Below, piece by piece: positions 15,655 to 37,451 of a stretch of DNA of 64,000 nt. The stretch is from Acidobacteriota bacterium (GTDB lineage Bacteria; Acidobacteriota; Vicinamibacteria; Fen-336). The DNA lies in contig WYBL01000116.1 in NCBI GenBank assembly GCA_011526565.1, forward strand, positions 3,019-67,018, given 5' to 3'. Position 1 is the stretch's first letter, and every line of letters starts with the position of its first letter. The notes beneath the pieces were generated by a model. The model saw only the letters and a program-made list of their open reading frames with translations, ran no database searches and had not been told where the DNA came from. Made by a program: the position numbers and the translations under genes.

Positions 15655-18600
15655 TCAGCTCGTCACCGTCCGCAGCCGCTCGCACAGCACGCGGATCACG
15701 CCCCGCACGACCTCGATGCGGTCGGCCATCAGCTCGTACAGCGCCTCCTGCTCGAGCCGGAACAGGTGGGTGGCGCCGATCGCCAGCACCGACGCCGAGC
15801 GCGGCTCCGGGTCCAGCGCGGCCATCTCGCCGAAGATCTCGCGCGGGCCCAGCTCGCGCAGCACGCGGCCCTCGTTGACGACCCGCACCCCGCCTTCGAC
15901 GACGATGTAGAGCGCCGACCCCATGTCGCCCTTCTCGAACACGATGCCGCCGGGGCCGACGTCGACCTCCTCGAGCCGCGAGGCCACCTCGGCCAGGATC
16001 TCGTCGGGCGTCTCGCGGAAGATCGACACGCTCTTCAGGATGATCACCTTCTCGACCGTGGTCAGCATCGACGTCCCTCCCGACAGCTCCGCCTCGTAGC
16101 GCGCGATCAACCGCTCGGCCTCGTCGAGCGCGAGGCCGGTGGCCGGCTGGCGCCGCCGCGGCAGCCGGGTCAGCACCTCGCGCACGATCGTCTCGTCGGC
16201 TGGCACGCGGGGCGCCAGCGCCAGCAGCCCCGGCAGGTCCGCCTCGACCGCAGCCTGCAAGGCGCAGGCGCGCAGCCAGGGCGCCGTCGCCTCGTCCGTC
16301 ACCAGTCGCTCGAGCCGCGCGGCGAAGCCCAGGAGTTGATGCGGGAAGGTCGCGCCCAACTTGCGCAGTCGCTCGGCATGCGCCACGTCCTCGAGCAGCG
16401 GCACCACCAGCTTGCCGACGTCGGGGGTCACAAGGCTGTCGACCAGTTCCACCGCCTGGGCCCGCTTCTCCGGCCGGCGGCTCGACAGGTTGACGCGGGC
16501 GCGCAGCACCGGGTCGGGCGGGTAGACGAAACCGAGCAGGCAGAAGACCCGCTCGCGAGCCCTGCCGAACGCGTGGTCCAGCGTGCTCGCGAGCAGCGCG
16601 CCCCGGGCCTCCGCGCGCACGTCCTCGAGCATCGCCAGCACCACCACCGCGTCGCGCACCTCGCGGGCGATCCGTTCCTTCACCTGCGGCACGGCAGCCG
16701 GCGCCGCCTCGAAGCCTGTCGTCGCCAGCGAGGACAGCAGCGACAGTCGCACCTCGGGATCGTCGTGGTCGGCGCACAGCCACAGGAACTCGCGGGCGCG
16801 GGCCCCGCCGATCTGCCCGATCAGGCGCGCGACCCGGCGCTGCGCCGAGCGCCGCCGCTGCTCGTCGGCGGCGTGGAAGGCCTGCTCGAGGTCCGGGAGC
16901 ACGGCGGGGCCCGAGGCGACCAGCGCCGCCATCGCCGCGGAACGGTGGGCGGGCAGGTCGAGGCTGCGCAACAGCAGCGGCAGCAGCCGCGGGTTGCGGA
17001 GCCGACCCGCGGCCCACAACGCGGCGCGCCGCACGGCCGGCTCGCGGTCGGCGAGCAACGCGATCAGCGGCCGGTAGAAGCTGGCCTGGCCGACCTCGCC
17101 GATCACCCGGGCCGCCTCCTCGCGGGCGACCGGTTCTTCGGCGCGGGCCATCGTCACCAGCCGCTCGCCGGCGGCCAGCACGCCTTCGATGCCGCCGTGG
17201 CGCAGCAGCGCCACCAGCGCTCCGCACCGGGCCTCCACCTCGGGGGCGTCGAGCGAGAGCATCACCCGCTCGACGTCCTCGGGTTCGCCGATCGCAGCCA
17301 GCGCCCGCAACGCCGCGCCGCGCGCCGCCGCATCCTCCTCCGCCACCGCCGCCAGCCGCACGGCCCCGAGCGCCGCGCGCAGGCCCAGCCGTTCCACACG
17401 CAGCGAGGCATCGCGGCGCACCGCGGGGTCCTGGTGGCCGAGTTGAGCGACCACGGCGCTCTCCAGCGACGGGTGGCCCAGTTCCTCGAGCACGCCGAGG
17501 CAGTAGGCGACCTCCTCGGGGCGCGGCGAGTGCAGCCCCTTCTGCAGCACGGCCAGGCTGGAGGCGTCGAGCGCCAGCGAGACCCCCTGCAGGTGGCGGC
17601 TCTCCAGCGCGCGGCGCAGCTTCTCGGTGTAGGCGCCGCGGAGCGTGGCGGCGACGACGACCCAGCCGAGCACCAGCAGTCCGAGCAGCGCGCACAGCTC
17701 GACGGCGCCGAAGCCGAGGCCGCCGACCAGGGCCAGCAACGCAATGCCGGCGACGCCGCCGGCCAGCGGGCCGACGATGCCTTCCACCGCGGTCTGCGCC
17801 CGCACCCGGGCCGCGCCGGGCAGCGGCTGGTAGAGCAGCAGCACCGCGCTGCGGTCGATCGAGTCGCGCAGCGACTGGTCGACCAGCTTGGTCAGCGCCA
17901 GCAGCGCGAAGAGCAGGGCCGTCGGAGCCGCCAGCGCACCCGCGCCGACGACGCCGAGGCAGCCGAGCCCGATCGCCGCCGGCATGAACTGCAGCGCCCC
18001 GAGCCCGAAGCGGGCCAGCGCCCGACCCGCCAGCGCTCGAGCCAGCAGGGTGATGGCCGCGACGCTGCCGTTGAACACGCCGATGAACGCGGTCAGGTCG
18101 CGCTCGGCGGGGTAGCGCGCCGCAGCCAGCGCGTAGAAGGCGTTGTCGAGGAAGTAGTAGGCGACGTACGACAGCGCCACGAGGGCGAACAGCAGCCGCA
18201 GGTAGCCGCTGCGCAGCCCGCCGCCGGAGCGGGCGGCGTGGGAGCGGTCCTCCTCGCCGCCGGCCGCCTCGAGCAGCGGGAAGCGCCGCGTCACCACTCG
18301 CAGCAGGGCCAGGCACCCGACCACGGCGGCGGCCGAGACCCACAGCAGGTCGGCGGTGCCGAAGCGCGCCACGAACAGCGGCACCAGCAGGCCCGTGAGC
18401 GCCCCGGCGGCGAGCTCTCCGGCGCCGATCGGCCCGAACAGCCGCTTGCCCTGGCGCACGTTGAGCAGCGAGCCCGAGAGCCCCCAGAACTCGAGCGTCA
18501 GCAGCACGCCCTCGACCTCGGCCCACACCGGCAGGACCAGCGCGACGGGCACGACGTGTCCCATGCCCAGCGCGCCGCGCAGCGTCAGCAGCGTGACCAG

Positions 18601-18879
18601 CACGACCAGCAGGTCGACGGCCAGCAGCGTGCGCAGGCCGACGCGCGCGGACAGGCGCAGGCGCAGGAAGCCGGTGACCGGGATCGCGATCGCCGCCGCG
18701 ATGTAGACCCAGGGCAGGTGGCGGGCGTCGCTGTGCGACAGGAACAGCGCCATGCCCGCGGTGCTGGTCAGGTTGCGCGGCACGCCGATGCAGAAGGAGT
18801 GGAGCATCAGCAGCCAGACGAGGCGCTCCTCCTCCGGGCGCACGTCCAGCATCGTGGCGATCGCCCTGCGCAGCCCCAT
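15655..18879 (-). CDS. Npt1/Npt2 (TLC ATP/ADP-translocase-like) MFS transporter fused to HEAT repeats and a C-terminal cyclic-nucleotide-binding domain
   Basis: N-term MLDVRPEEERLVWLLMLHSFCIG... ~12 TM; middle HEAT-like repeats (AVRRDASLRVERLG, PAVRRAALWAAGRL, PEVRLSLLSSL); C-term cNMP-binding (IVFEKGDMGSALYIVVEGGVRV...FGEMAAL...RSASVLA). Confidence 0.7.
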   Translation of the reverse strand: MGLRRAIATMLDVRPEEERLVWLLMLHSFCIGVPRNLTSTAGMALFLSHSDARHLPWVYIAAAIAIPVTGFLRLRLSARVGLRTLLAVDLLVVLVTLLTLRGALGMGHVVPVALVLPVWAEVEGVLLTLEFWGLSGSLLNVRQGKRLFGPIGAGELAAGALTGLLVPLFVARFGTADLLWVSAAAVVGCLALLRVVTRRFPLLEAAGGEEDRSHAARSGGGLRSGYLRLLFALVALSYVAYYFLDNAFYALAAARYPAERDLTAFIGVFNGSVAAITLLARALAGRALARFGLGALQFMPAAIGLGCLGVVGAGALAAPTALLFALLALTKLVDQSLRDSIDRSAVLLLYQPLPGAARVRAQTAVEGIVGPLAGGVAGIALLALVGGLGFGAVELCALLGLLVLGWVVVAATLRGAYTEKLRRALESRHLQGVSLALDASSLAVLQKGLHSPRPEEVAYCLGVLEELGHPSLESAVVAQLGHQDPAVRRDASLRVERLGLRAALGAVRLAAVAEEDAAARGAALRALAAIGEPEDVERVMLSLDAPEVEARCGALVALLRHGGIEGVLAAGERLVTMARAEEPVAREEAARVIGEVGQASFYRPLIALLADREPAVRRAALWAAGRLRNPRLLPLLLRSLDLPAHRSAAMAALVASGPAVLPDLEQAFHAADEQRRRSAQRRVARLIGQIGGARAREFLWLCADHDDPEVRLSLLSSLATTGFEAAPAAVPQVKERIAREVRDAVVVLAMLEDVRAEARGALLASTLDHAFGRARERVFCLLGFVYPPDPVLRARVNLSSRRPEKRAQAVELVDSLVTPDVGKLVVPLLEDVAHAERLRKLGATFPHQLLGFAARLERLVTDEATAPWLRACALQAAVEADLPGLLALAPRVPADETIVREVLTRLPRRRQPATGLALDEAERLIARYEAELSGGTSMLTTVEKVIILKSVSIFRETPDEILAEVASRLEEVDVGPGGIVFEKGDMGSALYIVVEGGVRVVNEGRVLRELGPREIFGEMAALDPEPRSASVLAIGATHLFRLEQEALYELMADRIEVVRGVIRVLCERLRTVTS

Positions 18880-18921
18880 GGGAACCCGCGAACGATAACC
18901 GATCGCGGCCCGGCCCCTGCG

Positions 18922-19383
18922 CTACCTCGGGCGGTAGCGCTCGATCCGCCCCCGGCAGCGCGGGCTCCCGCAGCGACAGGCGAAGCTCCAGCGCGGGTCC
19001 CAGAAGTAGTGCTCGGGGAAGCGGGCGAAGAGACGGGCGTCGGCCCACTCGTAGTCGATCGTCAGCTCGGTCCCGGCGGCCACGTCGCGCAGGGTGGCGA
19101 GGTCGCGGTCGGAGCGGATCTCGGCATTGGGCTCGCAGCCGTGGTTGACGTAACGGGCGAGCGTCAGCGGCACCGTCCACTCGAACGGCGCGAAGGAGTT
19201 GACGTAGACGATCTCCGCCTCCGGCACCTCGGTCCACGGCAGGTCGGGCCCGAGGAAACGGGTGAAGACCGTGCCGGCCGGCAGGCCGACCCGCGCGAAG
19301 ATCCCGGTGTGGCCCGCCGTCACCTCCCGCGCCTCCACGAAGCTCGCCTCGAGGGCCCGGGTGGCCGCGATGGCCGCCTTCAC
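18922..19383 (-). CDS. SET-domain protein (putative protein-lysine N-methyltransferase)
   Basis: GTG overlaps upstream stop (GTGA); hallmarks RYVNHGCEPN, GTELTIDYEW, post-SET CRCGSPRCRG. Confidence 0.7.
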   Translation of the reverse strand: MKAAIAATRALEASFVEAREVTAGHTGIFARVGLPAGTVFTRFLGPDLPWTEVPEAEIVYVNSFAPFEWTVPLTLARYVNHGCEPNAEIRSDRDLATLRDVAAGTELTIDYEWADARLFARFPEHYFWDPRWSFACRCGSPRCRGRIERYRPR

Positions 19384-20573
19384 AACGCGATCTCGCGCAC
19401 CGGGCCACGCAGGCAGTGGTCGGAGGCCATCGAGGATCCGTAGGCGCCGGCGGGCAGCAACGCCAGCAGGTCGCCCTCCTCGATCGCCGGCAGCGGCAGG
19501 TCGCGGGCGAAGATGTCGTTCGATTCGTTGATGTTGCCCGCGACCGAGACCGGCCCGGCGACCGGCGCCAGCGGGCGGTCGACGTGGGCGATCTCGACCG
19601 GCAGTCCGTAGTGGGCGGCGTACAGGTTGACGTTGTGGCCGGCGTCGACGCCGATCCACACCGTGCCCGACTTCTCCTCGACCGTGTTGACCTCCACGAC
19701 GAGCACCCCCGCCGCGTCGACCAGCAGCGTGCCCGGCTCGCAGGCGACCGTCACGCCCAGCGGCCCGAGGTGGCGCGCGGCGGCCTCCGCCCACTCCTCC
19801 GCCATCACCGGGTCGTCCACGGCGCGGCGGCGGGCGCCGAGGCCGCCGCCCAGGTTCACGGAACGGACGTCCGGCAGCCGCCGCGCGAAGCCCGCGAGCT
19901 TCTCCATCACCCACTCGAGCTTGTGCAGCGCGCCGCGCTGGATGCCCCAGCCGCAGTGCACGTGCAACCGGTCGACGACGAGGCCCGCGGCGCCGGCGGC
20001 CTCCACCGCCGCGTCGAAGGCGTCGTGGGCGAAGCCGAACTTGGTGTTGCCGTAGGCCAGCTTGGGGTGGCTGCCGTAGCCGATGTCGACGGCGCAGTCG
20101 AGCCGCAGGCCGATCGCCGTGCCGCGCGGCACGCGGCGCCCCCAGCGGCGGATCGCCGACAGCGAGTCGAGGTTGAGGCCCGCGCCCTCCGCGGCGAAGA
20201 AGTCGAGGTCGCGGTCGCTCAGCATCGAGGCGGTGACCGAGATCTCGTCGGCCGCGAAGCCCGTCTCGCGCGCGAGCGCGAACTCGCGCGGGGAGCAGGC
20301 GTCGATGCCGACGTCGCCGCAGCCGCGGATCGTCGCGAGCACCGGCCGGAAGCGGTTGGCCTTCATCGCGTAGTAGAGCCGGAACGGCAGGCCGCGCGAG
20401 GCGAAGGCCGCGCGCAACTCGTCGACGCGGCGGCGCACCTTGGCCAGGCTGTAGACGTAGAGCGGGGTGCCGTGCTCGGCCGCCAGCTCGCGCAGCGATC
20501 GGCCGTCGAAGCTGAGGCCCGCGGCTTCGGCGCGCAGGCCGTTGCCGGCCCACCAGGCGGGGATCGTGCTCAC
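19380..20573 (-). CDS. PLP-dependent Orn/DAP/Arg decarboxylase family (group IV, LysA-like) enzyme
   Basis: GTG start VSTIPAWW...; GTPLYVYS, PLP-lysine motif YAMKAN, EPGT near C-term; upstream Arg-rich extension in track is spurious. Confidence 0.75.
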   Translation of the reverse strand: MSTIPAWWAGNGLRAEAAGLSFDGRSLRELAAEHGTPLYVYSLAKVRRRVDELRAAFASRGLPFRLYYAMKANRFRPVLATIRGCGDVGIDACSPREFALARETGFAADEISVTASMLSDRDLDFFAAEGAGLNLDSLSAIRRWGRRVPRGTAIGLRLDCAVDIGYGSHPKLAYGNTKFGFAHDAFDAAVEAAGAAGLVVDRLHVHCGWGIQRGALHKLEWVMEKLAGFARRLPDVRSVNLGGGLGARRRAVDDPVMAEEWAEAAARHLGPLGVTVACEPGTLLVDAAGVLVVEVNTVEEKSGTVWIGVDAGHNVNLYAAHYGLPVEIAHVDRPLAPVAGPVSVAGNINESNDIFARDLPLPAIEEGDLLALLPAGAYGSSMASDHCLRGPVREIAL

Positions 20574-20637
20574 GTTCGGGCTCGCGCAGAGTATAGGCGC
20601 GGCCCGGGCACGCGCCGGGCCGCGGCCGTGACCCCGC

Positions 20638-24525
<3,888 letters not shown>

Positions 24526-24535
24526 CCCGACGAGC

Positions 24536-26185
24536 TTAGGGTGAGACGGCCCCCCAGTCGATCTCGTAGAGGCGATCGCCGTCTTCGGCGACGTGGACGA
24601 GGACGAACGTGCGCGCGGCGTCCATCGCGGGCACCAGCCGCCCCAGCGTCGGGAAGGCCCCCGCGCGCACGACCACGTAGCGGGTGTCGGGGAACCGCTC
24701 GCGGAGCAGCCGGAGCGGCCGCGAGGCGTCGACGTCGCCGGGGTCGCCGCGGCGCCAGTGGTTGCGCACCTGGCGCTGCAGCGCGAGGTTGTAGGGCGGG
24801 CCGAACGCGGCGAGGCCGTTGACGAACGGGTAGCCCGTGCGCGCGGCCCACACCAGCAGGTCCGGGTTGGTCGGAGCCACCTCGAGCACGGGCGCCCGCG
24901 GGCGGCGCACGAGCTCGGCGTAGACCGGGGCCAGTCCCGGCGCCACCTCGCGCACCTTCTGTGGCGGCGACCAGGCCTCGGCGGCGGCGGCGGCCAGCAG
25001 CAGCGATCCGAGCAGGGCGCCGCGTCCAGGGGGCTGATCGGCCCGCAGTCGCGCCGTGGCAAGACCGGCCATCACCGCCAGCAGCATCAGGGCCAGCGCG
25101 CCGAAGCTGCACGGGTGCCGCATCTGCTCGAAGCCGGGCAGGAACGAGAGCAGCGCCCACGGGCCGGGGAACTCGAGGCCGGGCAGGATCACCCGCGGGC
25201 CGAAGGAGAGCGCGAAGAGGATGGCCGCGAGAGCGGCCCACAGCCGCACCCCGGGCACCCGCCGCCGCAGGCCCTCGATCGCCAGCAGCGGCGCCACCAC
25301 GCCGGGGAAGGCGGCCTCGCCGCCGGTGCCCAGCAGCGCGCCCCACAGGTAGCCGGTGCTGGTCAGGTCGCGGGCGGGCTGGAAGGAGTACGTGACCGCT
25401 TCGGCCGCCGAGCGCTGCATCGGGATCAGCTCCGCGAGCGCGGCGAAGGCCCGCAGGTAGGGCCACGTGAGCACCAGCGCGATCGCCGCGGCCGCGGCGG
25501 CGTGGGCGAAGAAGCGCCGGTCGCCGAAGCGGCGCCAGTGCGCCGCGCCGAACAGCACGGCGAAGACGGCGAGGATCAGGGCGTAGTAGCCCGAGGACTG
25601 CGCGCTCAGCGAGAACGACACCCCGGCCAGCATGGCGTCGCGGGCGCGGGGCTTCTCCGCGAGGCGCGTGATCGCCAGCAGGAACAGCGCGATCCAGCCC
25701 GTCGAGATCAGGTTGAGGTGGGGCAGGTGCAGGGTCTGGTGCGAGTCGTGGGTCGCCATCAGGCCCGCCAGCGCGCCGGCCAGGCGGTCGCCCGTGCGGT
25801 CGTGGACCAGCTTGTGGAACGCCCAGCCCGAGAACGCCAGCGCGAACAGCGTGGCCAGGTTGAACAGCGGGATCGGATCGTCGATCAGCAGCCGCAGCGG
25901 CCAGACGAGGATGCCCGATCCCAGCGCGAAGTCGGCGTACAGCAGCGACCAGGGCGAGGGGTGGAAGACGTTCGCGTGGAAGAACGAGTCGCGGAGCAGG
26001 TGCCCGGTGGTCCAGTGGACCGCGAACATCTCCATCGCCGGGTCGGTCCCGGCCAGCGTCGCGCCGAAGAGATCGCGACCGAGCGGCCAGGTGAACGCGA
26101 CGGCCAGCGCCAGGAAGCCGGCGGCGACTGCGAGTTCGACCGCGAAAGGAGCCACCCCCTCCCGCAACCGGCCAGCTCTCTCCAC
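24536..26185 (-). CDS. Polytopic membrane protein, GT-C-like glycosyltransferase/DUF (function unknown)
   Basis: >=10 predicted TM helices then soluble C-terminal domain; 11 bp upstream of YyaL-AKR gene. Confidence 0.55.
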
Positions 26186-26279
26186 CGTGCCCCCACGAGG
26201 AGCGTCGATCCTACTAGAATCCGCGCTCCGCGCTTGGGGACGGAGGCGAAGGACCTTGGATCACGGACGGCGGACGTCG

Positions 26280-26675
26280 ATGGCGGCGATGGCGGCGGGA
26301 CTGCTGGCGGCGTGCGGCGGTAGCGGGGGCGACTCGCCCACCGGCCCGACCCAGCTCGTGGTCGAGGACATCACGATCGGCACCGGGGCCACCGCGGCCG
26401 TCGGCGACACGGTCACCGTGCACTACGTCGGCACGCTGCTCAACGGCACGCAGTTCGACAGCTCGTATCCCTCGGGACGGCCGTTCACCTTCCGCATCGG
26501 CGCCGGCCAGGTGATCCAGGGCTGGGAGCAGGGCGTGCCCGGCATGCGCGTCGGCGGCAAGCGGCGGCTGACGATCCCGCCGAGCCTCGGCTACGGCAGC
26601 CAGGCCAACGGCCCGATCCCTGCCAACTCGACGCTGCGCTTCGAGATCGAGCTGCTGTCGATCGCCGGCAAGTGA
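26280..26675 (+). CDS. FKBP-type peptidyl-prolyl cis-trans isomerase lipoprotein
   Basis: Lipobox MAAMAAGLLAACGG; FKBP core VTVHYVGTLLNGTQFDSSY...FRIGAGQVIQGWEQGVPGMRVGGKRRLTIPPSLGYG. Confidence 0.8.
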   Translation: MAAMAAGLLAACGGSGGDSPTGPTQLVVEDITIGTGATAAVGDTVTVHYVGTLLNGTQFDSSYPSGRPFTFRIGAGQVIQGWEQGVPGMRVGGKRRLTIPPSLGYGSQANGPIPANSTLRFEIELLSIAGK

Positions 26676-26749: not shown

Positions 26750-28609
26750 ATGGACGAGAATCCCCACGCCTCCCGCCACCAGACCGAACTGCTGCTGCAC
26801 GGGCTGCGCGCCCTGTTCGGCGAGGTCGACGAGACGTTCCTCGCCGAACTGCGCCCGCGCCTCGACTGGATCGAGCTGGCCGGCGGCGAGACGCTGTTCC
26901 GCCAGGGCGAGCGCGCCGACGACATCTACTTCGTGATCAGCGGGCGCCTGCGCGCCCACGTCGCGGACGAAGAGGGCGAGCGCGTGCTCGGCGAGATCAT
27001 GCGCGGCGAGACGATCGGCGAGATGGCGATCTTCACCGGCGAGCCGCGCTCGGCGTCGATCACCGCCGTGCGCGACAGCGTGCTCGTCAGGCTGTCGCGT
27101 CCCGCGTTCGAGGCGTTGCTCGGCTCCCACCCGCTGTTGTCGATCAACGTGACGCGGCTGATCATCGACCGCCTGAAGCGCTCCAGCCACCCGCGCAACG
27201 CGGCGCGGCGCCCGGTCAACCTGTGCCTGCTGCCGATCACGCCTGGCGCCGACGGCGAGGAACTCGGCCGCGCGCTGGTCGGGCGGCTGGGGCGCTACGG
27301 CCGCGCCGTGCTGCTGACCAGCGCCGGCGTCAACGCCCAGCACGGGCCGGACGTCGCGCAGGCCGACAAGTCGCGGCCCGACGACTACCGCCGGCTGACC
27401 CGCTGGCTCGACGAGGTCGAGGCCCAGCACGACTTCCTGGTCTTCGTCGCCGACCGCGAGGCCAGCGAGTGGTCGCGCCGCTCGCTGCGCCACTCGGACG
27501 AGGTGCTGCTGCTGTGCGAGGCGGGTGCGGAGCCCGCCGTGCACCCGATGGAGCGCGACTTCCTGGAGGGCCCGGGCCGGGTCGGCGGCGCGAGCCAGAC
27601 GCTGGTGCTGCTCCACCCGCCGGGCACCACCTTCCCGCGCGGCACGAAGCGCTGGCTGGACCGCCGGCCCGTCGCCCGCCACTTCCACGTGCGCCCCCAC
27701 CTCGAGCGCGACGTCGCGCGGCTCGGCCGCATCCTCTCGGGCCACGCGATCGGCCTCGTCTTCAGCGGCGGCGGCGCCCGCGGCTTCGCGCATCTCGGCG
27801 TGCTGCGCGCGCTGGAGGAGCACGGCGTCGCGATCGACTACGTCGGCGGCACCAGCATCGGCGGGGTGATGGCCGCGCTGTGCGGCTTCGACCAGCCGGC
27901 GATGCAGGCGATCCACAACGCCCGCCGCGCCTTCAAGGCCGACCCCACGAGCGACTACAACATCGTGCCGATGATCTCGTTCATCCGCGGCCGCAAGCTG
28001 AAGCGGATCATCGAGCAGGCGGTCGAGGAGGCGGTCGGTTCGCCGTGCGACCTCGAGGACTGCTGGAAGACGGTGTTCTGCATCGCCACCAACTTCTCGC
28101 GCTCGACGGAGATGGTGCTGACCCGCGGCGACCTGGCGCGCCAGGTGCGGGCCTCGGTCTCGATCCCCGCCGCGCTGCCGCCGGTGATCCACGACGGCGA
28201 CCTGCTGGTCGACGGCGGCTGCTTCAACAACTTCCCCACCGACGTGATGGGCCGGCTCGGGGTCGGCAGGGTGATCGGAGTCGACCTGATCAAGGACGTG
28301 CGGCGGCGCCAGGAGATCGACGAGGTGCCCGGCAACTGGGACCTGCTGCGCGACAAGCTGCGCGGCCGCCGCCGCCGTTACCGGCTGCCGTCGCTGACCG
28401 CCGTGCTGCTGATGTCGACGATCCTGTACTCCAACTCGCGCCGCAAGCAGACGAAGCAGTACACCGACCTCTACTTCAACCCGGAGATGGGGCGGGTCGG
28501 CCTGCTCGAGTGGGGCCGCTTCGAGTCGATCGTCGAGCTCGGCTACCTCCACGCGAAGGAGGTGCTCGGCCGCATGACCGACGCGGAGCTCGCCCCCTAC
28601 CGCGACTGA
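26750..28609 (+). CDS. Cyclic-nucleotide-binding domain + patatin-like phospholipase (NTE-family-like)
   Basis: N-term cNMP-binding (LFRQGERADDIYFVISGRLRAH...GEMAIFTGEPRSASITA); patatin motifs GLVFSGGGARGFAHLGVLRALEE (Gly-rich), GTSIGG (GxSxG), DGG. Confidence 0.8.
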   Translation: MDENPHASRHQTELLLHGLRALFGEVDETFLAELRPRLDWIELAGGETLFRQGERADDIYFVISGRLRAHVADEEGERVLGEIMRGETIGEMAIFTGEPRSASITAVRDSVLVRLSRPAFEALLGSHPLLSINVTRLIIDRLKRSSHPRNAARRPVNLCLLPITPGADGEELGRALVGRLGRYGRAVLLTSAGVNAQHGPDVAQADKSRPDDYRRLTRWLDEVEAQHDFLVFVADREASEWSRRSLRHSDEVLLLCEAGAEPAVHPMERDFLEGPGRVGGASQTLVLLHPPGTTFPRGTKRWLDRRPVARHFHVRPHLERDVARLGRILSGHAIGLVFSGGGARGFAHLGVLRALEEHGVAIDYVGGTSIGGVMAALCGFDQPAMQAIHNARRAFKADPTSDYNIVPMISFIRGRKLKRIIEQAVEEAVGSPCDLEDCWKTVFCIATNFSRSTEMVLTRGDLARQVRASVSIPAALPPVIHDGDLLVDGGCFNNFPTDVMGRLGVGRVIGVDLIKDVRRRQEIDEVPGNWDLLRDKLRGRRRRYRLPSLTAVLLMSTILYSNSRRKQTKQYTDLYFNPEMGRVGLLEWGRFESIVELGYLHAKEVLGRMTDAELAPYRD

Positions 28610-28616
28610 AGGCCGC

Positions 28617-29153: not shown

Positions 29154-29204
29154 GTCCGCCTCCCCGACCGCGACCCTACGAAGTCTGCGCCCCCCGCGTC
29201 AACC

Positions 29205-29576
29205 TCAGATCCGCTCGGGGTCGCGCACCGTGCGCGCCTCGACGACCTCGCCCGTGTTGACGACGCCGCGGCGCTCGAACAGCAACACGTGGCACTCGGC
29301 GTCGGCGACCGGCCGGTGCTCGACGCCGCGCGGCACGACCAGCAGTTGCGAGGGCCCCAGCTCGGCGACGCCGTCGCGGAACTCGATGCGCAGGCGGCCG
29401 GAGAGGACCAGGAACAGCTCGTCTTCGGCCTCGTGGCGGTGCCACACGAACTCCCCGTGCAGCTTCGCCAGCTTGACGTCGTAGCCGTCGACCTCGGCGA
29501 TCCGCTTCGGGGTCCAGGTCTCGGAGAACGAGGCGAGCTTGGCGCCGAGGTCGACGACGGGCGGGACCCCGTTCAA
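29205..29576 (-). CDS. Cupin-domain protein
   Basis: GEFVWHRHEAEDELFLVLSGRLRIEF...LLVVPRGVEHRP (cupin His motifs); TTG start overlapping upstream stop (TTGA); start uncertain. Confidence 0.55.
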   Translation of the reverse strand: MNGVPPVVDLGAKLASFSETWTPKRIAEVDGYDVKLAKLHGEFVWHRHEAEDELFLVLSGRLRIEFRDGVAELGPSQLLVVPRGVEHRPVADAECHVLLFERRGVVNTGEVVEARTVRDPERI

Positions 29577-30073: not shown

Positions 30074-30105
30074 CGAACTCCTCCGGCTCGCCCCCGGGGA
30101 ATCGT

Positions 30106-31149: not shown

Positions 31150-31306
31150 AACGAGGCGGGATTGTAACCGCGGCGGCGTCTTTTTGCCCCCGGGCGGTTG
31201 CCGGGCCGGGAGCGGTCGGCTACTTTAGGGGGGTCCGTGCTCTCGCGGACCCGATGTGCGGGTGGCTTTCGCGCAGATCCTGCGGGAAGTCGCCCTAGGA
31301 GTGTGC

Positions 31307-32200
31307 ATGACGTCATTGCCGTTCCGGCGCCCGAGCGCCGCGCTCCTCCTGCTCCTGCTGACCTCGTGCGGCGGGGGCGGTTCTTCTCCGGCCGCACCCA
31401 GCACTCCTCCGACGGGCAACACCACTCCGACCCCCACGCCGGCGCCGACCGCGACGCCGACTCCCACCCCGGGCGGCGGCACCGCGGCCGCGAGCTGCAC
31501 CGCCCTCGGCTACGGCGTCTGGGACGCCCCCTGCTCGCGCAGCGGCGGTCAGTTCACGGAAGTCGTGATGTCCGCCATCAACCAGCTCCAGCGGGAGAAG
31601 CCGGGCCTGTTCGACACCACGCAGTTCGCGGGGGGCAACCCCGAGCAGTGGCGGGTGCTCGACGCGTCCGCCTACTACCAGGGCGTGATGGAGGTCCTCG
31701 GCCGCAACGGCTACTGCGCGAACCTGCTGGCCACCACGATCTCGGTCAAGACCTCCAACTCCTTCTCGGAGGACTTCGACGTGATGCTCAGCTCGGGCCA
31801 CGTCCGGCGAGGCGAGGCGGCCTACCGCAACACCTGCCAGCCCGCCAACTTCCCCGCCAACCCGGTCGAGATGATCAACCGCGTCCGGGTCGGCTTCTTC
31901 GAGATCCGCTGCCCCGACGGGCGCACGCCGCCCCGCAACGGCGAGAACACGCTGCCGATCGGCTGCCTCGGCACCGTCACGGCGACGCCCAAGGACAGGG
32001 ACGACCACGACGTGCCGGCCTCCGTCCACGGCCCCGACATCGAGTGGGAGCTGCTCCAGGACGGCTTCATCGCCGACATCGGCGACGACCCGGTCAGCAA
32101 GTTCAACATGTTCGTCTCGGCCCACAACCCCGGAAGCTTCGAGCTGTGCGCCACCGTGCAGACGATCCGCGGCTGCATGAGGGGCACGGTCATCGAGTAG
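31307..32200 (+). CDS. Lipoprotein with Pro/Thr-rich linker and Cys-rich globular domain, function unknown
   Basis: Lipobox LLLLLLTSCGGGG; linker PTGNTTPTPTPAPTATPTPTPGG; 8 Cys in mature domain. Confidence 0.55.
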   Translation: MTSLPFRRPSAALLLLLLTSCGGGGSSPAAPSTPPTGNTTPTPTPAPTATPTPTPGGGTAAASCTALGYGVWDAPCSRSGGQFTEVVMSAINQLQREKPGLFDTTQFAGGNPEQWRVLDASAYYQGVMEVLGRNGYCANLLATTISVKTSNSFSEDFDVMLSSGHVRRGEAAYRNTCQPANFPANPVEMINRVRVGFFEIRCPDGRTPPRNGENTLPIGCLGTVTATPKDRDDHDVPASVHGPDIEWELLQDGFIADIGDDPVSKFNMFVSAHNPGSFELCATVQTIRGCMRGTVIE

Positions 32201-32209
32201 GAGGAGATC

Positions 32210-33325
32210 ATGGTTCTCGGCCTGTTCGGGGGAACCGACGTCGGGGACCTGATCGCGAAGAAGAAGTACGCGCGGGCCATCGAGGTCCTCGGCGAGCAGC
32301 TTCGCCGGGGCACCTCGGACCCGCGCGTCCGCAACCAGCTCGCGGACGTGCTGATCATGGCCGGCCGCGAGAAGGAAGCGGTGCCGGTGCTGATCGAGCT
32401 GGCGGACGAGTACGCCCGCGTCAACCAGGCCCCGCGCGCGATCGCGCTGCTCAAGAAGATCGAGCGCATCGACCCCGGCCGTCGCGACGTCGACCAGAAG
32501 CTGGCCTCGCTGATCCGCGACAAGAAGCCGAAGGCCAAGGCCCCGGCGGGCGGCGGCTGGCAGCCCTACGAGGAAGGCGGCCTGAGCACCGGCGGCTCGG
32601 TGTTCGACGCCTCCCACTTCGAGCCCTCGCCGTACACGGGCCAGGAGTCGGTCGCCGCGGCGAAGAAGGCGTCGTGGGAACCCGACATCGGGACCCGGAA
32701 GGAGGAGGCGCCCGGCGCGCCTGCGCCCCCCGACTTCCCTGCGATCCAGCTCCCGCCCGAGCCCGACGAGCCGCCGATGTTCTCGCAGGAGATGTTCCGC
32801 GGCCAGGTGCTCGACGTGATCCAGCAGGTGCTGCAGTCGCCTGCCGTGCCACCCCCGGCGCCACTCGCGACCGCGCCGGCCGTGACGGCCGAAGGCGAAG
32901 AGCCGCTGATCGAGGTCGAGCCGGAGCCGGAACTCGTGACGAGCCCGCTGTTCGGCGACATGTCGGAGGACGAGCTGATCGCGTTCATGCGCGGCCTGCG
33001 GCTGCTGAGCTTCGAGCCCGGCGACGTGATCCTGACCGAGGGCCACCCGGGCGACTCGCTGTTCGTGGTCTCGAGCGGCCTGGTCAAGGCCTTCGTCAAG
33101 GACCAGGGAGCCACCGGCCAGCGCCTCGCCCGCACGATGAAGGACGGCGACTTCTTCGGCGAGATCTCGATCCTGTCGGGCAAGCCGCGCACCGCGACGG
33201 TCACCGCGGCGACCCGCGTCGAGCTGCTGGAGATGGACCGCCCGACGCTCGACGAGATGCTGAAGCAGTACCCGCGCATCATGCAGGTCCTGCAGGACTT
33301 CTACGTCGCCCGCGCGACGGCCTGA
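32210..33325 (+). CDS. TPR-like N-terminal domain + C-terminal cyclic-nucleotide-binding domain protein
   Basis: Helical N-term (AIEVLGEQL...LADVLIMAGREKEAVPVLIELADEY), acidic/Pro linker, cNMP domain (ILTEGHPGDSLFVVSSGLVKAF...FGEISILSGKPRTATVTAATR). Confidence 0.7.
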   Translation: MVLGLFGGTDVGDLIAKKKYARAIEVLGEQLRRGTSDPRVRNQLADVLIMAGREKEAVPVLIELADEYARVNQAPRAIALLKKIERIDPGRRDVDQKLASLIRDKKPKAKAPAGGGWQPYEEGGLSTGGSVFDASHFEPSPYTGQESVAAAKKASWEPDIGTRKEEAPGAPAPPDFPAIQLPPEPDEPPMFSQEMFRGQVLDVIQQVLQSPAVPPPAPLATAPAVTAEGEEPLIEVEPEPELVTSPLFGDMSEDELIAFMRGLRLLSFEPGDVILTEGHPGDSLFVVSSGLVKAFVKDQGATGQRLARTMKDGDFFGEISILSGKPRTATVTAATRVELLEMDRPTLDEMLKQYPRIMQVLQDFYVARATA

Positions 33326-33363
33326 AGCGGGGCCTCTCGCGAGGCGAATCGAAGGGGACTGCC

Positions 33364-34158: not shown

Positions 34159-34203
34159 CGTTCGTCAGGAAGCTGGGGCCTCGACCGGCGCCCGGCGGCG
34201 TGG

Positions 34204-34755
34204 TCAGCGCGCGGGCGGGGACGGGGGCGCGGGGCAGGCGGACACCCCGCGCTCCGCGCGGCGGGCCTCCAGCGCCTGCCCGATGCGGGCGAGCTGCTCC
34301 GCGCCCAGGTGCCGCTGCAACGTCTCGTAGAAGGCGCGCTCCTCGTAGCGGACGTGGTCGTCGAGCAGCGGGCCGAGTTCGGCGCACACCGGCCGGAGGT
34401 CGTCGCCGCGAACGAGCGCCGTGGCGAGCGACGCGGCCAGGGCCTCCATCTCGCGGTGCTCGTCCGCGATCCGCCGCACGCCCTCGGGGTCGAAGCCGCG
34501 CGCCGCGGGCAGCAGCTCCTGCTCCTCGTCGGCGAAGTGGCCGCGCATCTCCGCCTCCCAGGTCGCGAGGAACGCGCGGGCCGCGGCGACGACGGCCGGG
34601 TCGCCCGCGGGCCGCTGCGCGGCGCGCTTGAGGTCGAGGGCGCGGACCAGCACGCCATGGTGCTCGCGGGAGAGGGCGACGAGGGCGGGATCGCGGCGCA
34701 GGCCGCGGGTGCCGGGAGCCAGCGCGGGCACGACCCGCGGCGGGCGTTCGCTCAC
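34204..34755 (-). CDS. Hemerythrin-like domain protein
   Basis: HHE-type motifs (REHHGVLVRALDL, HFADEEQELLP, DEHREMEAL, DHVRYEERAFY); GTG overlaps upstream stop (GTGA). Confidence 0.65.
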   Translation of the reverse strand: MSERPPRVVPALAPGTRGLRRDPALVALSREHHGVLVRALDLKRAAQRPAGDPAVVAAARAFLATWEAEMRGHFADEEQELLPAARGFDPEGVRRIADEHREMEALAASLATALVRGDDLRPVCAELGPLLDDHVRYEERAFYETLQRHLGAEQLARIGQALEARRAERGVSACPAPPSPPAR

Positions 34756-37451
34756 GCCGGGGGCTGGCCGCGCAGCTGCGCAGCCTCGGCGCTCTGCGCG
34801 CGCTCGCGGGCGAACGCTTCCAGCACCTCGCGCATGCGCGGGTGGCTCGCGGTACACGCCTCGAGCGCCTCGCGGGTCAGCTCCAGCAGCTCGCCCCGGG
34901 TCGAGGCGATCACGGTCGCGCGCCGCGGGCCACCCGAGAGCGCGGCCATCTCGCCGAAGAAGGCGCCGTCGCGCAGCACCGCCAGGCGCGCGTCGTGGCC
35001 GCGCGGGGTGCGCACGAACACCTTGACCACGCCGGTGGCGAGGATGAACAGGCTGCCGCCGGGCTCGCCTTCGCTGATCAGGATCTCGCCCGGCTCGATC
35101 GGCACCAGCCGGAGCTGCTGGACGAGCGCCAGCAGCTCTTCTTCGGTGAAGCCCTCGAACAGCGGGCTGCCGCGCAGGCCGCTGTCGTAGGAGCGGGCGG
35201 CCGCCGGCGCCGCCTGCGCGCCCAGCGTCGGCGTGCGCTGCACCTGGTCGCGCACGACGTCGACGAGCCAGTCGGCGAAGCTCGCCTCGGTGCGCGGGCC
35301 GCGCGCGGGCGCGGGGGCGACGGGTGGCGGCGGGGCGGGCACGGGCGGGGCCGGCTCGGCGGCGGCGGTCGCCCGCGGCCGCTTGAGCGGCGCGAGGTTG
35401 ACCTCCTCGACGTAGCGCCGCTGCAGTCCCTCGATCTTCTTGAGGATCGCGATCGCCTTCTCGGGGAACCCGCCGCGCACGAGCTCGTCGGCGAGGCCCA
35501 CCAGCACCGCGACCGCGTCCTCCTCCTTGCCCGCTCGCAGCAGCGCGTCGGCCAGCCGCAACTGCATCTTGGGGTCCCACTGGCTGGCGCCGAAGTGGGC
35601 GAGCAGCACCTCGGTGGCACGCCGCCGGGTGTTCTCCGCGTCGAGCGCGACCGCGCGCACCGCGGCGTTGGCGGGCGAACTGGCGCGCGCGATGTAGGCC
35701 GCCTCCAGCCGGTCGCGCACCCGCGGGTGCACGGCGGCCATCGCGTCGAGCGTGGGCTTCGACAGCTCGAGGCACTCGACCCAGTCGGCGGCGACGACGG
35801 TCGCGGAACGCGGGCGGCCGGAGAGCGCGGAGACCTCGCCGAACCAGTCGCCCTCGAGGAGGCGCGCGACCTCGACGTTGCGGCCGACCGGGTTGCGCAC
35901 GTAGACCCGCAGCTCGCCGGTCGTGAGCAGGAACAGGCTGTTGCCCGGCGCGCCCTCGCTGACCAGCACGTCGCCCGGGTCCCACGTGCGCAGCGTCAGG
36001 CCTTCGACGACGGCCATCAGCTCGTCCTGCTTGAGGTCGCCGAACAGGGGCGTGGCCAGCAGGCGCCGGCTCATCTCCAGGTAGTGGCGAGCGTCGACAC
36101 GAACGGGGTGCGCCTCTTCGTCGAGCGCGTCGATCTCGGGCTCGACGGGTTTCGCGACCGGTTCGCCGGGCCGCTTCAGCACGTCCTGGACGAGGTCGAG
36201 GAGCTGGTCGTGGAACTCCGCCTCGTCGAGGCCCTCCGAGCCCTCGGGCTCGGGCAGCAGCTCGATCAGCGACTCGGGAGGCGCTTCGTCTTCGGCCTCC
36301 GGCTCCACTTCCGGGGAGGGCTCGACTTCTGCCGCCACCGGCGCCGCGGCGTCCACCGGTTGCGCTTGCTCCACCTGCAGCGCCGGCGCCGCGGGCTCGG
36401 GCGCTGCCGCGGCAATCGGCTCAGGCTCCACCGTGGGCTCGGCGGCAGGCTCGGTCTCGGGCTCGGTCTCGGGCTCGGTGTCGACCTCGGGCTCGGCTTC
36501 CGGCTCCGGCTCGATGCGCGGCTCCTCATCGCCCTCGCGGCTCAGGAACCCGCGCAGCGCGCCCTTGAAGCGATCGACGCCGGACTCCTCGGCGTCGGGG
36601 CTCGCGGCTTCGGGCGCGGGCGCGTCCGCGGCGGCCAGCGCGGGCTCGGGTGCTTCGGCCGGGACCGGCTCGGGTGCGGAGGGCGCCGCGGGCTCCGCGG
36701 GCTTCTCGTCGTCGACGAGCGACGACAGGAAGCGGCGGAACACGGAGCGCAGGCGACCGCCCGCGGGCTTCGCCGGCTCGGCCGGCGCCTCCGGCTCCGG
36801 CACCGGCTCGGCCTCGGGTTCGGGCTCAGGCACGGGCTCGGCCTCGGGTTCCTCGGCCCGAGCTTCGGCGGCCTGCTGCGCGGGCGACGGCGGGACCTCG
36901 GCCGCGGCTGGCGCAGGTGGCGTGGGCACCGGAACCGCGGCCGCCTCGTCGGGCGGCAGCGGCCCGCCGATCTCGGGCGGCAGCGCCGTGAAGTCGGGCA
37001 CTGCCATCCGCGACAGCGTCTCGTCGCCGGGCGCCTCGCCGATCTCCTCGATCCCGAACAGGGGCGCCGGGGCGGGTCGCGGCGTCGGGGTCGGCGTCGA
37101 GCTGCCCGCAGCCGACTGGCGCGCCTGCTCCTCGACCAGCGCGGCCATCCGCTCCGCGACGTCGGCGCGCCCCGGGTCGACCTTCTCGACGCGCTTGAGG
37201 ATCGCGATCGCCTTGGCGACGAAGCCGTCGCGGCGCAGCTCGTCGACCAGCGCCAGCAGGATCGGGCATGCCTCGTTCGGGCGGCCCGCCTGGATCAGCA
37301 GGTCCGCGAGCTGGAGGCGCACCTTCTCCGAGGGCGCCTTGCCCTCGAGCTGCTCGCGCAGCGTCTCGATCGCCTTCGCCCGCCGCTTGCGGGCGAGGAT
37401 CTCGGAGACGTTCGACTCGATCGGCGAGTTGAGCCAGTCGATCGGCGGCAT
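34752..37451 (-). CDS. Tandem-duplicated (TPR-like + cNMP-binding) x2 protein with long acidic Pro/Glu-rich linker
   Basis: Module 1 MPPIDWLN...LADLLIQAGRPNEA then cNMP (VLVSEGAPGNSLFLLTTGELRV...FGEVSALSGRPRSATVVA); module 2 repeats same (LADALLRAGKEEDA ... ILISEGEPGGSLFILATGVVKV...FGEMAALSGGPRRATVIA). Confidence 0.7.
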   Translation of the reverse strand: MPPIDWLNSPIESNVSEILARKRRAKAIETLREQLEGKAPSEKVRLQLADLLIQAGRPNEACPILLALVDELRRDGFVAKAIAILKRVEKVDPGRADVAERMAALVEEQARQSAAGSSTPTPTPRPAPAPLFGIEEIGEAPGDETLSRMAVPDFTALPPEIGGPLPPDEAAAVPVPTPPAPAAAEVPPSPAQQAAEARAEEPEAEPVPEPEPEAEPVPEPEAPAEPAKPAGGRLRSVFRRFLSSLVDDEKPAEPAAPSAPEPVPAEAPEPALAAADAPAPEAASPDAEESGVDRFKGALRGFLSREGDEEPRIEPEPEAEPEVDTEPETEPETEPAAEPTVEPEPIAAAAPEPAAPALQVEQAQPVDAAAPVAAEVEPSPEVEPEAEDEAPPESLIELLPEPEGSEGLDEAEFHDQLLDLVQDVLKRPGEPVAKPVEPEIDALDEEAHPVRVDARHYLEMSRRLLATPLFGDLKQDELMAVVEGLTLRTWDPGDVLVSEGAPGNSLFLLTTGELRVYVRNPVGRNVEVARLLEGDWFGEVSALSGRPRSATVVAADWVECLELSKPTLDAMAAVHPRVRDRLEAAYIARASSPANAAVRAVALDAENTRRRATEVLLAHFGASQWDPKMQLRLADALLRAGKEEDAVAVLVGLADELVRGGFPEKAIAILKKIEGLQRRYVEEVNLAPLKRPRATAAAEPAPPVPAPPPPVAPAPARGPRTEASFADWLVDVVRDQVQRTPTLGAQAAPAAARSYDSGLRGSPLFEGFTEEELLALVQQLRLVPIEPGEILISEGEPGGSLFILATGVVKVFVRTPRGHDARLAVLRDGAFFGEMAALSGGPRRATVIASTRGELLELTREALEACTASHPRMREVLEAFARERAQSAEAAQLRGQPPA
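36440..36860. repeat. Low-complexity coding repeats (12-bp ggctcggtctcg x3 at 36448-36483; ~42-bp duplication near 36790-36855) encoding PE/TEPE repeats
   Basis: Seen directly in DNA; encodes TEPETEPETEP and EPEAEPVPEPEPEAEPVPEP in linker of the double cNMP protein. Confidence 0.5.

Follow-up and report, generated by a model that had tools for sequence, protein, structure and literature searches.

Bacterial effectors of cyclic nucleotides outside the CRP class are poorly understood, and the Acidobacteria, abundant in soil, have yet been little studied. A classification of proteins that bind cyclic nucleotides (cNMP) is said to have been given by McCue et al. in 2000. The described systems closest to the proteins considered here are the regulatory subunit of PKA and PKG; the MlotiK1, SthK and HCN/CNG channels, which carry a C-terminal cNMP-binding (CNB) domain on a membrane transport module; the PycTIR and PycTM effectors of Pycsar, in which a CNB domain is fused to an effector module; the MFS-HEAT-cNMP proteins, named 'Npt1/Npt2 family nucleotide transporter' or, as in Sorangium sp. 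(P0160), 'MFS transporter' by NCBI and JGI, for no member of which the substrate is known; and the NTE/PNPLA6/Swiss-cheese family. To our knowledge, the classical TLC ATP/ADP translocases of Rickettsia, Chlamydia and plastids have neither HEAT nor CNB parts. A review describes NTE as a protein conserved from bacteria to man (PMC9025805). Its bacterial representatives are uncharacterised. CNB-esterase and CNB-transporter proteins are listed for M. tuberculosis (PMC10865251).

The window analysed here, 64 kb of DNA from a soil acidobacterium of an uncultured Vicinamibacteria (Acidobacteriota) lineage, contains four ORFs within 22 kb that carry five CNB domains. The four proteins, p1 to p4, had been located in an earlier note on this DNA, and the same ORFs are obtained from GC3 frame analysis and from independent gene calls on metagenome contigs. 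All four exceed the cut-off of the Pfam model cNMP_binding (PF00027, 27.5 bits), with scores of 64.8 for p1, 85.6 for p2, 76.8 for p3 and 150.3 bits for the two domains of p4. An HMM built from the five domains recovers exactly those five from the six-frame translation of the window, with no match in the remaining 42 kb. The cupin at 29205-29576 has a sub-threshold cNMP_binding match of 18.8 bits and was rejected as a CNB protein because Cupin_2 is its significant match and the local HMM misses it. The reading that we prefer, with a probability of about 0.6, is that the four proteins are genuine stand-alone cNMP receptors which form three independent, separately conserved gene units, lying side by side in one genus, and not one co-evolving system.

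The CNB domains, delimited by the local HMM and alignment A1, are located at 15670..16053 on the minus strand in p1 (cassette FGEMAALDPEPRSAS), at 26795..27178 on the plus strand in p2 (IGEMAIFTGEPRSAS), at 32918..33319 on the plus strand in p3 (FFGEISILSGKPRTAT, also aligned with 30 homologues), and on the minus strand in p4 at 35676..36077 (domain 1, p4a, FGEVSALSGRPRSAT) and 34791..35192 (domain 2, p4b, FGEMAALSGGPRRAT). The residues G38, G45, G57, G78, E79, P87, R88 and A90 of A1 are invariant; the β-barrel glycines, the Gly-Glu of the phosphate-binding cassette and the Pro-Arg-x-Ala are kept in all five. As the cassette Gly-Glu and Arg are intact throughout, none of the domains is degenerate, an objection that the earlier note had raised against itself. 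The cassette reads F-G-E-x-A-L-x(4)-P-R-[ST]-A-[ST], which is almost the consensus of PKA/PKG. Across the 30 homologues of p3, at about 50% overall identity, the p3 cassette is almost fully conserved, with F-F-G-E-I, L-S-G-K, Arg and A-T invariant and Thr or Ser after the Arg, and 48 of the 54 CNB-domain hits among members of the p1 family have the canonical GE...RxA motif, counted with a loose pattern of which a few matches are off-register. It has to be considered whether such domains might be structural or bind something other than cAMP or cGMP (for example, have no ligand at all, or recognise a different nucleotide or a small metabolite as some CRP/FNR-family sensors do), with no cNMP signalling at the locus. 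The six p1-family hits that lack the canonical cassette by this pattern, mostly distant ones, the lack of a detectable cyclase in the window (see below) and a review (PMC9025805) that still calls the role of cNMP binding in the CNB domains of eukaryotic NTE/PNPLA6 a suggestion and not an established fact agree with such a possibility. However, the retention of the residues that contact ribose and phosphate in all five domains, the conservation within the p3 and p1 families, and the top sequence and fold matches, which are proven cAMP or cGMP binders, make it very unlikely.

Sequence searches against the PDB give PKG, PKA-RI, HCN and MlotiK1 as the best matches of the CNB domains examined, with CRP also among the closest solved relatives, so the assignment to the PKA-R/PKG/CAP type in the earlier note holds. 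The p3 domain was the one modelled for fold; its AlphaFold model has a pLDDT of 80-91 over aa 245-370, and a Foldseek search with it finds CRP, HCN, PKG and MlotiK1 at E about 1e-10, the target TM-scores being 0.5-0.78. The modelled domain is predicted to have the eight-stranded β-barrel with flanking helices. Kinase or kinase-inhibitor segments, as in the PKA/PKG proteins, are lacking in p1-p4, and except in p4 the CNB domain is single instead of a tandem A/B pair. Pfam detects no HTH domain in the four proteins, hence no C-terminal HTH_Crp, and the NCBIfam CRP/FNR models cover only their CNB part, far below the cut-offs. The residue following the cassette Arg is Ser in p1, p2 and p4a, Thr in p3 (Ser in many orthologues) and Arg in p4b. 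An alignment of the cassettes, proposed earlier as a means to distinguish cAMP from cGMP specificity, thus confirms the conserved Gly-Glu and Arg but gives no call for either ligand, with Ser, Thr or Arg at this position and Thr and Ser alternating among p3 orthologues. The domains of p1 and p2 are 24-33% identical to all others, whereas those of p3, p4a and p4b share 45-46% with each other. The five domains thus belong to three old lineages. Since only the p3, p4a and p4b domains are close, there are three independent units and not four, and it was an overstatement to describe four paralogous sensor domains; the two TPR proteins p3 and p4 are the only paralogues among the four.

The first unit ends with p1 (15655..18879, minus strand, 1074 aa; Pfam CNB at aa 974-1053 and HEAT_2), in which a polytopic MFS/TLC-like transporter at about aa 1-415 is followed by HEAT repeats at about aa 434-900 and the C-terminal CNB domain. 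This is the full architecture of the proteins named Npt1/Npt2. The arrangement also follows the logic of MlotiK1, SthK and HCN/CNG, with similarity in the sequence and fold of the CNB domain, but the membrane part of p1 is a transporter-like domain of a predicted 10-12 helices (about 10-12 hydrophobic 19-mer segments in aa 54-413 by a simple Kyte-Doolittle scan) and not a tetrameric channel, and about 470 residues of HEAT repeats separate it from the CNB domain. The name 'Npt/TLC' given to p1 earlier rests on a sub-threshold match to TLC (PF03219; 15.6 bits against a cut-off of 21, aa 222-413 only); the TLC hits of p1 orthologues are likewise 'faint' or 'weak', and a p1 paralogue matches MFS_1 instead. 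Many proteins of similar build are 31-56% identical to p1 over 91-100% of the length, and its exact sequence is already in NCBI as 'cyclic nucleotide-binding domain-containing protein [Vicinamibacteria bacterium]'. The gene is the last of an operon which begins with an Orn/DAP/Arg decarboxylase-like PLP enzyme (19380..20810, minus strand, start codon uncertain), overlapped by 4 nt by the gene of a SET-domain protein (18922..19383, minus strand) that ends 42 nt before p1.

The second unit contains p2 (26750..28609, plus strand, 619 aa), in which a CNB domain, NTE_Ploop (PF24179; 73 bits against a cut-off of 27, aa 158-319) and Patatin (PF01734, 102.5 bits) follow one another in the order seen in the NTE/PNPLA6/Swiss-cheese family and its bacterial homologues. 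The patatin motifs GGGxRG, GxSxG and DGG of that family are kept in the translation as the oxyanion FSGGGARG, GGTSIGG (nucleophile GTSIG) and VDGG (catalytic DGG), and the PDB search gives the PlpD patatin (6.9e-26). With these motifs and an NTE-specific P-loop-like domain, p2 is an NTE/PNPLA6-type protein. Animal NTE has three CNB domains and p2 one, and a membrane anchor at the N-terminus of p2 is not evident. Homologues are found across phyla; those from MAGs with the labels beta proteobacterium and Saprospirales are 49% and 39% identical to p2. A gene for an FKBP peptidyl-prolyl isomerase (26280..26675) lies 74 nt upstream on the same strand.

A patatin protein with a CNB domain could also be seen as the membrane-destroying member of a set of Pycsar-type anti-phage effectors. 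All four proteins are matched by the PADLOC profiles of PycTIR (E 1e-10 to 1e-25), and p2 also has weak matches to CBASS/phospholipase effector profiles. A defence role is nevertheless rejected, because the PADLOC matches run through the common CNB domain only (profile positions about 26-150); likewise, the match to 'PycC' covers just positions 18-152 of the profile and falls on the CNB domain of the query. No PycC-type or other cyclase is detected adjacent to the genes or in the window, none of the proteins has a TIR or Pycsar TM module, conserved core-genome synteny places the genes beside homoserine dehydrogenase and the suf operon, and the architecture of p2 is the housekeeping NTE type with NTE_Ploop. 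We consider this explanation extremely improbable.

The third unit comprises the TPR proteins. p3 (32210..33325, plus strand, 371 aa; Pfam CNB and TPR_19) has a TPR-like domain of three repeats at aa 10-105, which is joined to the CNB domain by a disordered linker carrying two short motifs that are conserved, as judged from AlphaFold models and alignment A2 of 30 family members. A PDB sequence search matches the CNB part only, and the N-terminal domain has no specific relative in the PDB but only generic designed or natural TPR arrays, with E-values no better than 1e-3 and a TM of about 0.43. The p3 start is separated from the stop of a predicted Cys-rich lipoprotein (31307..32200, plus strand, 297-314 aa, without a Pfam match) by 9 nt that contain a GGAGGAG ribosome-binding site, and in the relative L008 a lipoprotein homologue of 40% identity is found directly upstream of the p3 orthologue. 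p4 (34752..37451, minus strand, 899 aa; Pfam two CNB domains and TPR) is, from the module alignment, an internal tandem duplication of a p3-like module, with a TPR-like part, a Pro/Glu/Ala-rich linker and a CNB domain in each half. It diverges from sufB across 101 bp; in L008, an orthologue of 877 aa adjoins p3 and suf. The gene of a hemerythrin-domain protein (34204..34755, minus strand) has its start overlapping the p4 stop by 4 nt, making co-translation with p4 probable; it is present in L005 and L012 and absent from L008.

The four architectures are as first described. They represent three types (transporter-HEAT-CNB, NTE-type CNB-patatin and TPR-CNB), all uncharacterised but either known or present in existing annotation. 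The earlier note had called the four genes a cluster. They do lie within 22 kb, and a CNB gene is present in four of five consecutive transcription units at the locus. They do not make an operon or island: p1 to p4 lie on the minus, plus, plus and minus strands, in four separate transcription units on alternating strands, and are thus neither co-oriented nor co-transcribed as expected of a cNMP-effector operon. Thirteen unrelated genes are interspersed among them, which by Pfam include SET, decarboxylase, DUF255/aldo-keto reductase, FKBP, TerB, cupin, DinB, homoserine dehydrogenase, methyltransferase and hemerythrin proteins besides the lipoprotein and an unknown protein; two of the intervening products, of 539 aa and 314 aa, have no Pfam match. 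As claimed before, no cyclase or CRP-type regulator was found between the four genes, every one of the intervening genes having been scanned with Pfam. Elsewhere in the 64-kb window no cyclase or CRP-type HTH was detected either, a negative that is limited by about ten further ORFs without a Pfam match there (about a dozen in the whole window).

The run of minus-strand genes ending with p1 and the FKBP-p2 pair diverge from a single intergenic region of 124 bp, so common control of the two would be possible. This is a point against three independent units. A regulatory motif shared among the three divergent intergenic regions was sought; the one shared 10-mer, CAACCGGCCA, lies in two of them, 26156-26279 and 37452-37552, and is compatible with chance at the local GC content (estimated P about 0.1-0.3).

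All four CNB genes are found together only in L005, where p1-p3 are 82-88% and p4 64% identical, and in L012, with 96-98% for p2-p3 and 86% for p4. The arrangement is not kept in L006, L007, L008, L010, L011 or L094. L010, L011 and L094, at 50-55% identity, retain the decarboxylase-SET-p1 triad, with SET directly upstream of a p1 orthologue of the same architecture and upstream genes identical in kind, and no other CNB gene lies within 10 kb. L008 has the lipoprotein-p3-p4-suf block at 54% identity, without the patatin gene, and the patatin-CNB gene of L006 and L007 has no CNB neighbour except for one weak hit. These comparisons show that every CNB gene has its own conserved micro-synteny and that the units separate in more distant relatives.

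The density of CNB genes was assessed by sampling flanking DNA of relatives and by simulations over a range of genome-wide numbers (N). The 617 kb of flanks contain about 10 further CNB genes, or roughly one per 62 kb, which would amount to about 100 genes in a 6-Mb genome if they are evenly spread. A second TPR-CNB gene is present in L024, L054, L076 and L079, a p1 paralogue (MFS/TLC-HEAT-CNB) adjoins a TPR-CNB gene in L046 and L053, and three CNB genes lie within 9 kb in L092. Since neighbouring CNB genes are common in this lineage, the claim that the clustering is unusual is not established. Within the window, a span of at most 21.8 of 64 kb has P = 0.12 for four points and P = 0.27 for three independent units. 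The simulated probability that three or more units fall in 21.8 kb is 0.04-0.05 for an assumed N of 20, 0.23-0.38 for N of 40 and 0.56-0.79 for N of 60, and whether four CNB genes in 22 kb are in excess over chance depends on the number of CNB units per genome; a literature search returned nothing relevant on genome-wide numbers of CNB genes or cyclases. If there are about 20 units or fewer per genome, the clustering is unlikely by chance (P about 0.04-0.05), an outcome that would count against three independent units. The adjacency of transporter-HEAT-CNB and TPR-CNB genes recurs in two lineages, L046/L053 and L092, 46% identical, and hints at a functional link.

An explanation built on such links is a selected neighbourhood, in which the four genes are kept close for one cyclic-nucleotide response, for example with TPR-CNB scaffolds partnering the transporter and the lipase and co-regulation through shared divergent promoters. 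The repeated placement of TPR-CNB genes beside other CNB genes (p4 in L008, and the pairs and trio above), the frequency of CNB genes in the flanks, the four of five transcription units and the shared 124-bp region would fit this explanation. However, the four-gene arrangement is lost beyond close relatives, no CNB gene neighbours the p1 orthologues at 50-55% identity, and the partner of TPR-CNB elsewhere is a different p1 paralogue, 35-36% identical to p1. The solitary patatin-CNB genes, the 13 unrelated genes in between and the single chance-compatible 10-mer also argue against it, and we regard it as unlikely. The best explanation of the density combines one old duplication (p3/p4), a lineage rich in CNB effectors that are often neighbours, and rearrangement at the level of the genus. 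With three independent units that are neighbours only within this genus, the locus would be an ordinary, if sensor-rich, part of the chromosome rather than a new signalling system, and the clustering by itself gives no present sign of one.

The second-messenger control of transport, lipid hydrolysis and protein scaffolding proposed in the earlier note is a fair reading of the architectures. cAMP or cGMP from a cyclase encoded elsewhere would bind the canonical phosphate-binding cassette of each protein, and the usual lid and hinge movement of the CNB domain would be passed on to its own output. In p1, the signal may travel through the HEAT-repeat arm to the MFS/TLC-like transporter of 10-12 helices and gate transport. 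In p2, it would reach the NTE-type patatin, a presumed Ser-Asp (lyso)phospholipase, and in p3 and p4 the small TPR-like interaction modules on their long disordered linkers, which might then bind partners in a ligand-dependent manner. A bolder possibility, which we find quite unlikely, is that the TPR-CNB proteins of Vicinamibacteria (single, double and multi-module) and the transporter-HEAT-CNB proteins form a lineage-specific network of cNMP effectors without a transcription-factor output, the former being ligand-switched adaptors for the transporter and possibly the NTE-type lipase, and that the proximity in this window, L046/L053 and L092 reflects partnership.

Three uncharacterised architectures, transporter-HEAT-CNB, NTE-type CNB-patatin and TPR-CNB, are represented in the window by examples that appear well defined and evidently functional. 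With their conserved ligand-binding cassettes, they lend themselves well to assays of binding and activity. The clustering is of value in drawing attention to a lineage rich in CNB genes and to a neighbourhood of TPR-CNB and transporter-CNB genes that recurs and could be tested.

The region carrying the four genes is an ordinary chromosomal stretch of a lineage rich in cyclic-nucleotide-binding (CNB) domains, and the encoded proteins, p1 to p4, add new members to architectures that are known and have been annotated before, but are uncharacterized. Because the G+C content of the window is 68–76%, spurious frames dominate the raw ORF lists; genes were called from third-position G+C and frame periodicity, and the same ORFs appear in independent gene calls on metagenome contigs with an identical patatin protein. 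The observation of four CNB proteins made in the earlier note is confirmed, while its interpretation is supported in part. Pfam cNMP_binding is above threshold in all four ORFs: p1 (15655–18879, minus strand) has HEAT_2 and a C-terminal CNB domain, p2 (26750–28609, plus) has CNB, NTE_Ploop and Patatin, p3 (32210–33325, plus) has TPR and CNB, and p4 (34752–37451, minus) has TPR and two CNB domains (p4a and p4b). The four proteins thus hold five CNB domains, and an HMM built from these five and run on the six-frame translation recovers exactly these in the window, with none in the other 42 kb. A small cupin protein (29205–29576, minus) with a sub-threshold cNMP_binding match (18.8 bits) was rejected as a sixth, as the match reflects the common double-stranded β-helix fold. 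The exact window proteins match metagenome or MAG assemblies only; in NCBI the identical p1 protein already carries the name [quoted passage not shown], and among GTDB genomes the nearest is a Vicinamibacteria MAG whose patatin protein is 88% identical. This places the source among uncultured Acidobacteriota of the class Vicinamibacteria.

Alignment of the five domains shows that the β-barrel glycines and the Gly-Glu and Pro-Arg-x-Ala of the phosphate-binding cassette are all invariant. The cassettes are FGEMAALDPEPRSAS in p1, IGEMAIFTGEPRSAS in p2, FGEISILSGKPRTAT in p3, FGEVSALSGRPRSAT in p4a and FGEMAALSGGPRRAT in p4b. The best-matching solved structures are PKG, PKA-RI, HCN, MlotiK1, SthK and CRP, and their CNB domains superpose with the p3 AlphaFold model. 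The p3 cassette is nearly fully conserved in 30 homologs with an overall identity of only ~50%, and the canonical GE...RxA pattern, a loose one with a few matches off-register, occurs in 48 of 54 CNB-domain matches of the p1 family. None of the five domains is thus degenerate, and the refuting condition set in the earlier note, a lack of the conserved Arg and Glu, fails. The cassette Arg is followed by S, T or R, with T/S alternation among p3 orthologs; as this position varies, cAMP versus cGMP identity cannot be read from sequence.

The description of four paralogous sensor domains holds for p3, p4a and p4b, which are 45–46% identical pairwise, and not for p1 and p2, which are 24–33% identical to every other CNB domain. 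Within p4, a p3-like module (TPR-like domain, Pro/Glu/Ala-rich linker, CNB) is duplicated in tandem, and p1 and p2 are distant; the four genes thus fall into three independent lineages. NCBI and JGI annotate the p1 family, found in Vicinamibacteria and also Sorangium, as Npt1/Npt2 or ATP:ADP-antiporter-like, HEAT-repeat and CNB proteins. In the earlier label for p1, Npt/TLC-HEAT, the HEAT part stands, but TLC scores below threshold in p1 itself and a paralog matches MFS_1, so that "MFS/TLC-like transporter" is safest; some 10–12 hydrophobic segments support a polytopic membrane domain. p2 is a bacterial NTE/PNPLA6-type enzyme whose patatin motifs are intact, of a family known from bacteria to man (PMC9025805).

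p3 and p4 share a family, in which the N-terminal half of p3 (aa 1–240) matches 801 cluster representatives at E ≤1e-3 and 308 at ≤1e-10. Its domain is confidently modeled as a three-repeat TPR-like helical array, for which no specific PDB relative was found, and the linker is predicted to be disordered. Members are mostly ~340–400 aa (one module) or 680–960 aa (two or three modules), with a few giants such as P0238 (10 matched stretches in 1249 aa) and P0293 (12 in 3060 aa). The TPR-like and linker module, which p4 carries twice, can apparently be strung together in many copies. Pycsar effectors were rejected as an identity, as PADLOC matches run through the CNB domain only and no cyclase partner was detected in the scanned ORFs of the window.

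The intervening genes are mutually unrelated and none is tied to cNMP signaling. They encode a SET-domain protein, an Orn/DAP/Arg decarboxylase, a 1295-aa DUF255-thioredoxin/aldo-keto-reductase (AKR) protein, a 539-aa protein without Pfam match, FKBP, TerB, cupin and DinB proteins, homoserine dehydrogenase, a Cys-rich lipoprotein without Pfam match, a methyltransferase and a hemerythrin; sufBCDS-nifU and then an Rrf2 regulator follow the region. Neither a cyclase domain nor a CRP-type HTH was detected in the scanned ORFs of the 64 kb, about a dozen of which have no Pfam match, in agreement with the earlier claim that neither lies between the four genes. Strands, gaps and 4-nt overlaps predict five transcription units: unknown, DUF255/AKR, decarboxylase, SET and p1 (minus); FKBP and p2 (plus); homoserine dehydrogenase, DinB, cupin and TerB (minus); lipoprotein, p3 and methyltransferase (plus); and p4 and hemerythrin (minus). 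Each of p1 to p4 is thus in a separate predicted unit.

The hemerythrin-domain gene (34204–34755, minus), a neighbor of the suf Fe-S assembly operon, overlaps the end of p4 by 4 nt at its start and is probably translationally coupled to p4; the close relatives L005 and L012 have it, and L008 (54% identity) lacks it. The DUF255/thioredoxin-like and aldo/keto reductase domains of the 1295-aa fusion (20638–24525, minus) are joined by three tandem ~29-aa units (aa 652–732) that cross-match the Pro/Glu-rich linker of the L005 p4 ortholog. The divergent intergenic regions 26156–26279 (upstream of the p1 gene run and the FKBP-patatin pair) and 37452–37552 (upstream of p4 and sufB) have in common the 10-mer CAACCGGCCA, in the latter within the imperfect palindrome GTCAACCGGCCAAACTTGAC; given the G+C content of the window, the coincidence is probably due to chance. 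GAF domains, which in some proteins also bind cyclic nucleotides, occur in three further signaling proteins: a GAF histidine kinase (1705–3195, plus), a GAF-SpoIIE/PP2C phosphatase (8178–9422, minus) and a Ser/Thr kinase (44462–46894, minus) whose GAF match is weak. Over ~44000–64000, third-position G+C falls from 0.93–0.98 to 0.78–0.88 and overall G+C from ~0.73 to ~0.68; genes there include an ECF sigma factor, Ser/Thr kinase, MacB/FtsX permease and AAA ATPase, and gene calls on locus L096 add a NADAR-DarT1-like gene (~62537–62923, plus) and a HicA toxin just past the window end. This part of the sequence may be of a more accessory kind, or acquired.

Among related loci, L005 keeps all four genes together (p1–p3 82–88% and p4 64% identical) and L012 keeps p2, p3 and p4 (p2 and p3 96–98%, p4 86%). 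L008, whose p3 ortholog is 54% identical, keeps homoserine dehydrogenase, lipoprotein (40%), p3, convergent p4 and suf, and lacks the patatin gene, and in L009 a p3 homolog (47%) stands alone. The decarboxylase-SET-p1 triad is kept with p1 orthologs at 50–55% identity (L010, L011, L094), with no second CNB gene within 10 kb of them, and patatin homologs from other phyla (L006, L007) lack CNB neighbors except for one weak match. As the units separate at greater distance, the conserved elements are three: (a) decarboxylase-SET-p1, (b) lipoprotein-p3, with p4 by suf, and (c) the widespread NTE-type p2. Their side-by-side placement is a genus-level feature. In element (a) (15655–20810, minus), the PLP decarboxylase and small SET genes overlap by 4 nt, and the conserved run suggests a transporter linked to amine or polyamine metabolism; a CHASE8-HAMP histidine kinase lies near it in the window, L011 and L094. 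A TPR-CNB gene is directly divergent from sufB in the window (37452–37552), L008 (~13743–14000) and L025 (2501–2773), where the protein is only 39% identical to p3; the placement beside the Fe-S cluster operon is kept across deep divergence.

As a proxy for CNB gene density, 80 p3-family metagenome loci (625 kb) and four p1-family loci were scanned with the local CNB HMM, tblastn and Pfam. Separate extra CNB genes occur in L012, and a second TPR-CNB gene in L024 and L054 and likewise in L076 and L079. L046 (2–5770) and L053 (2–4800) have a convergent MFS/TLC-HEAT-CNB gene ~1 kb away, 35% identical to p1, and L092 (4227–13201; NCBI GCA_050184175.1, JBFXAP010000003.1) has a p1 paralog, a TPR-CNB gene and a 224-aa CNB-only gene, that is, three CNB genes in 9 kb, beside a HAMP-PAS hybrid kinase. 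The p1 paralog adjoining TPR-CNB genes is 35–36% identical to p1. Extra CNB genes number roughly 10 per 617 kb of flanks, or ~1 per 62 kb, implying that CNB genes in this lineage are very numerous or tend to neighbor one another. The simulated probability of at least three units within 21.8 kb anywhere in a 5–7-Mb genome is 0.04–0.05 for 20 assumed independent CNB loci, 0.23–0.38 for 40 and 0.56–0.79 for 60; a 21.8-kb span within the 64-kb window has P = 0.12 for four points and 0.27 for three units. These values neither establish nor refute the view that the clustering is unusual.

Each of p1 to p4 would act as a stand-alone receptor, in which cAMP or cGMP, the product of a cyclase encoded elsewhere, would bind to the canonical CNB domain and the lid/hinge rearrangement would be passed on to the protein's own output. 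The HEAT arm of p1 would gate its MFS/TLC-like transporter, the NTE-type Ser-Asp lipase of p2 would be activated or freed from inhibition, and the TPR-like modules of p3 and p4 would engage partners in a ligand-dependent manner. The most interesting remainder is the recurrence of TPR-CNB genes near a transporter-HEAT-CNB paralog in two lineages, whose paralogs are 46% identical to each other.
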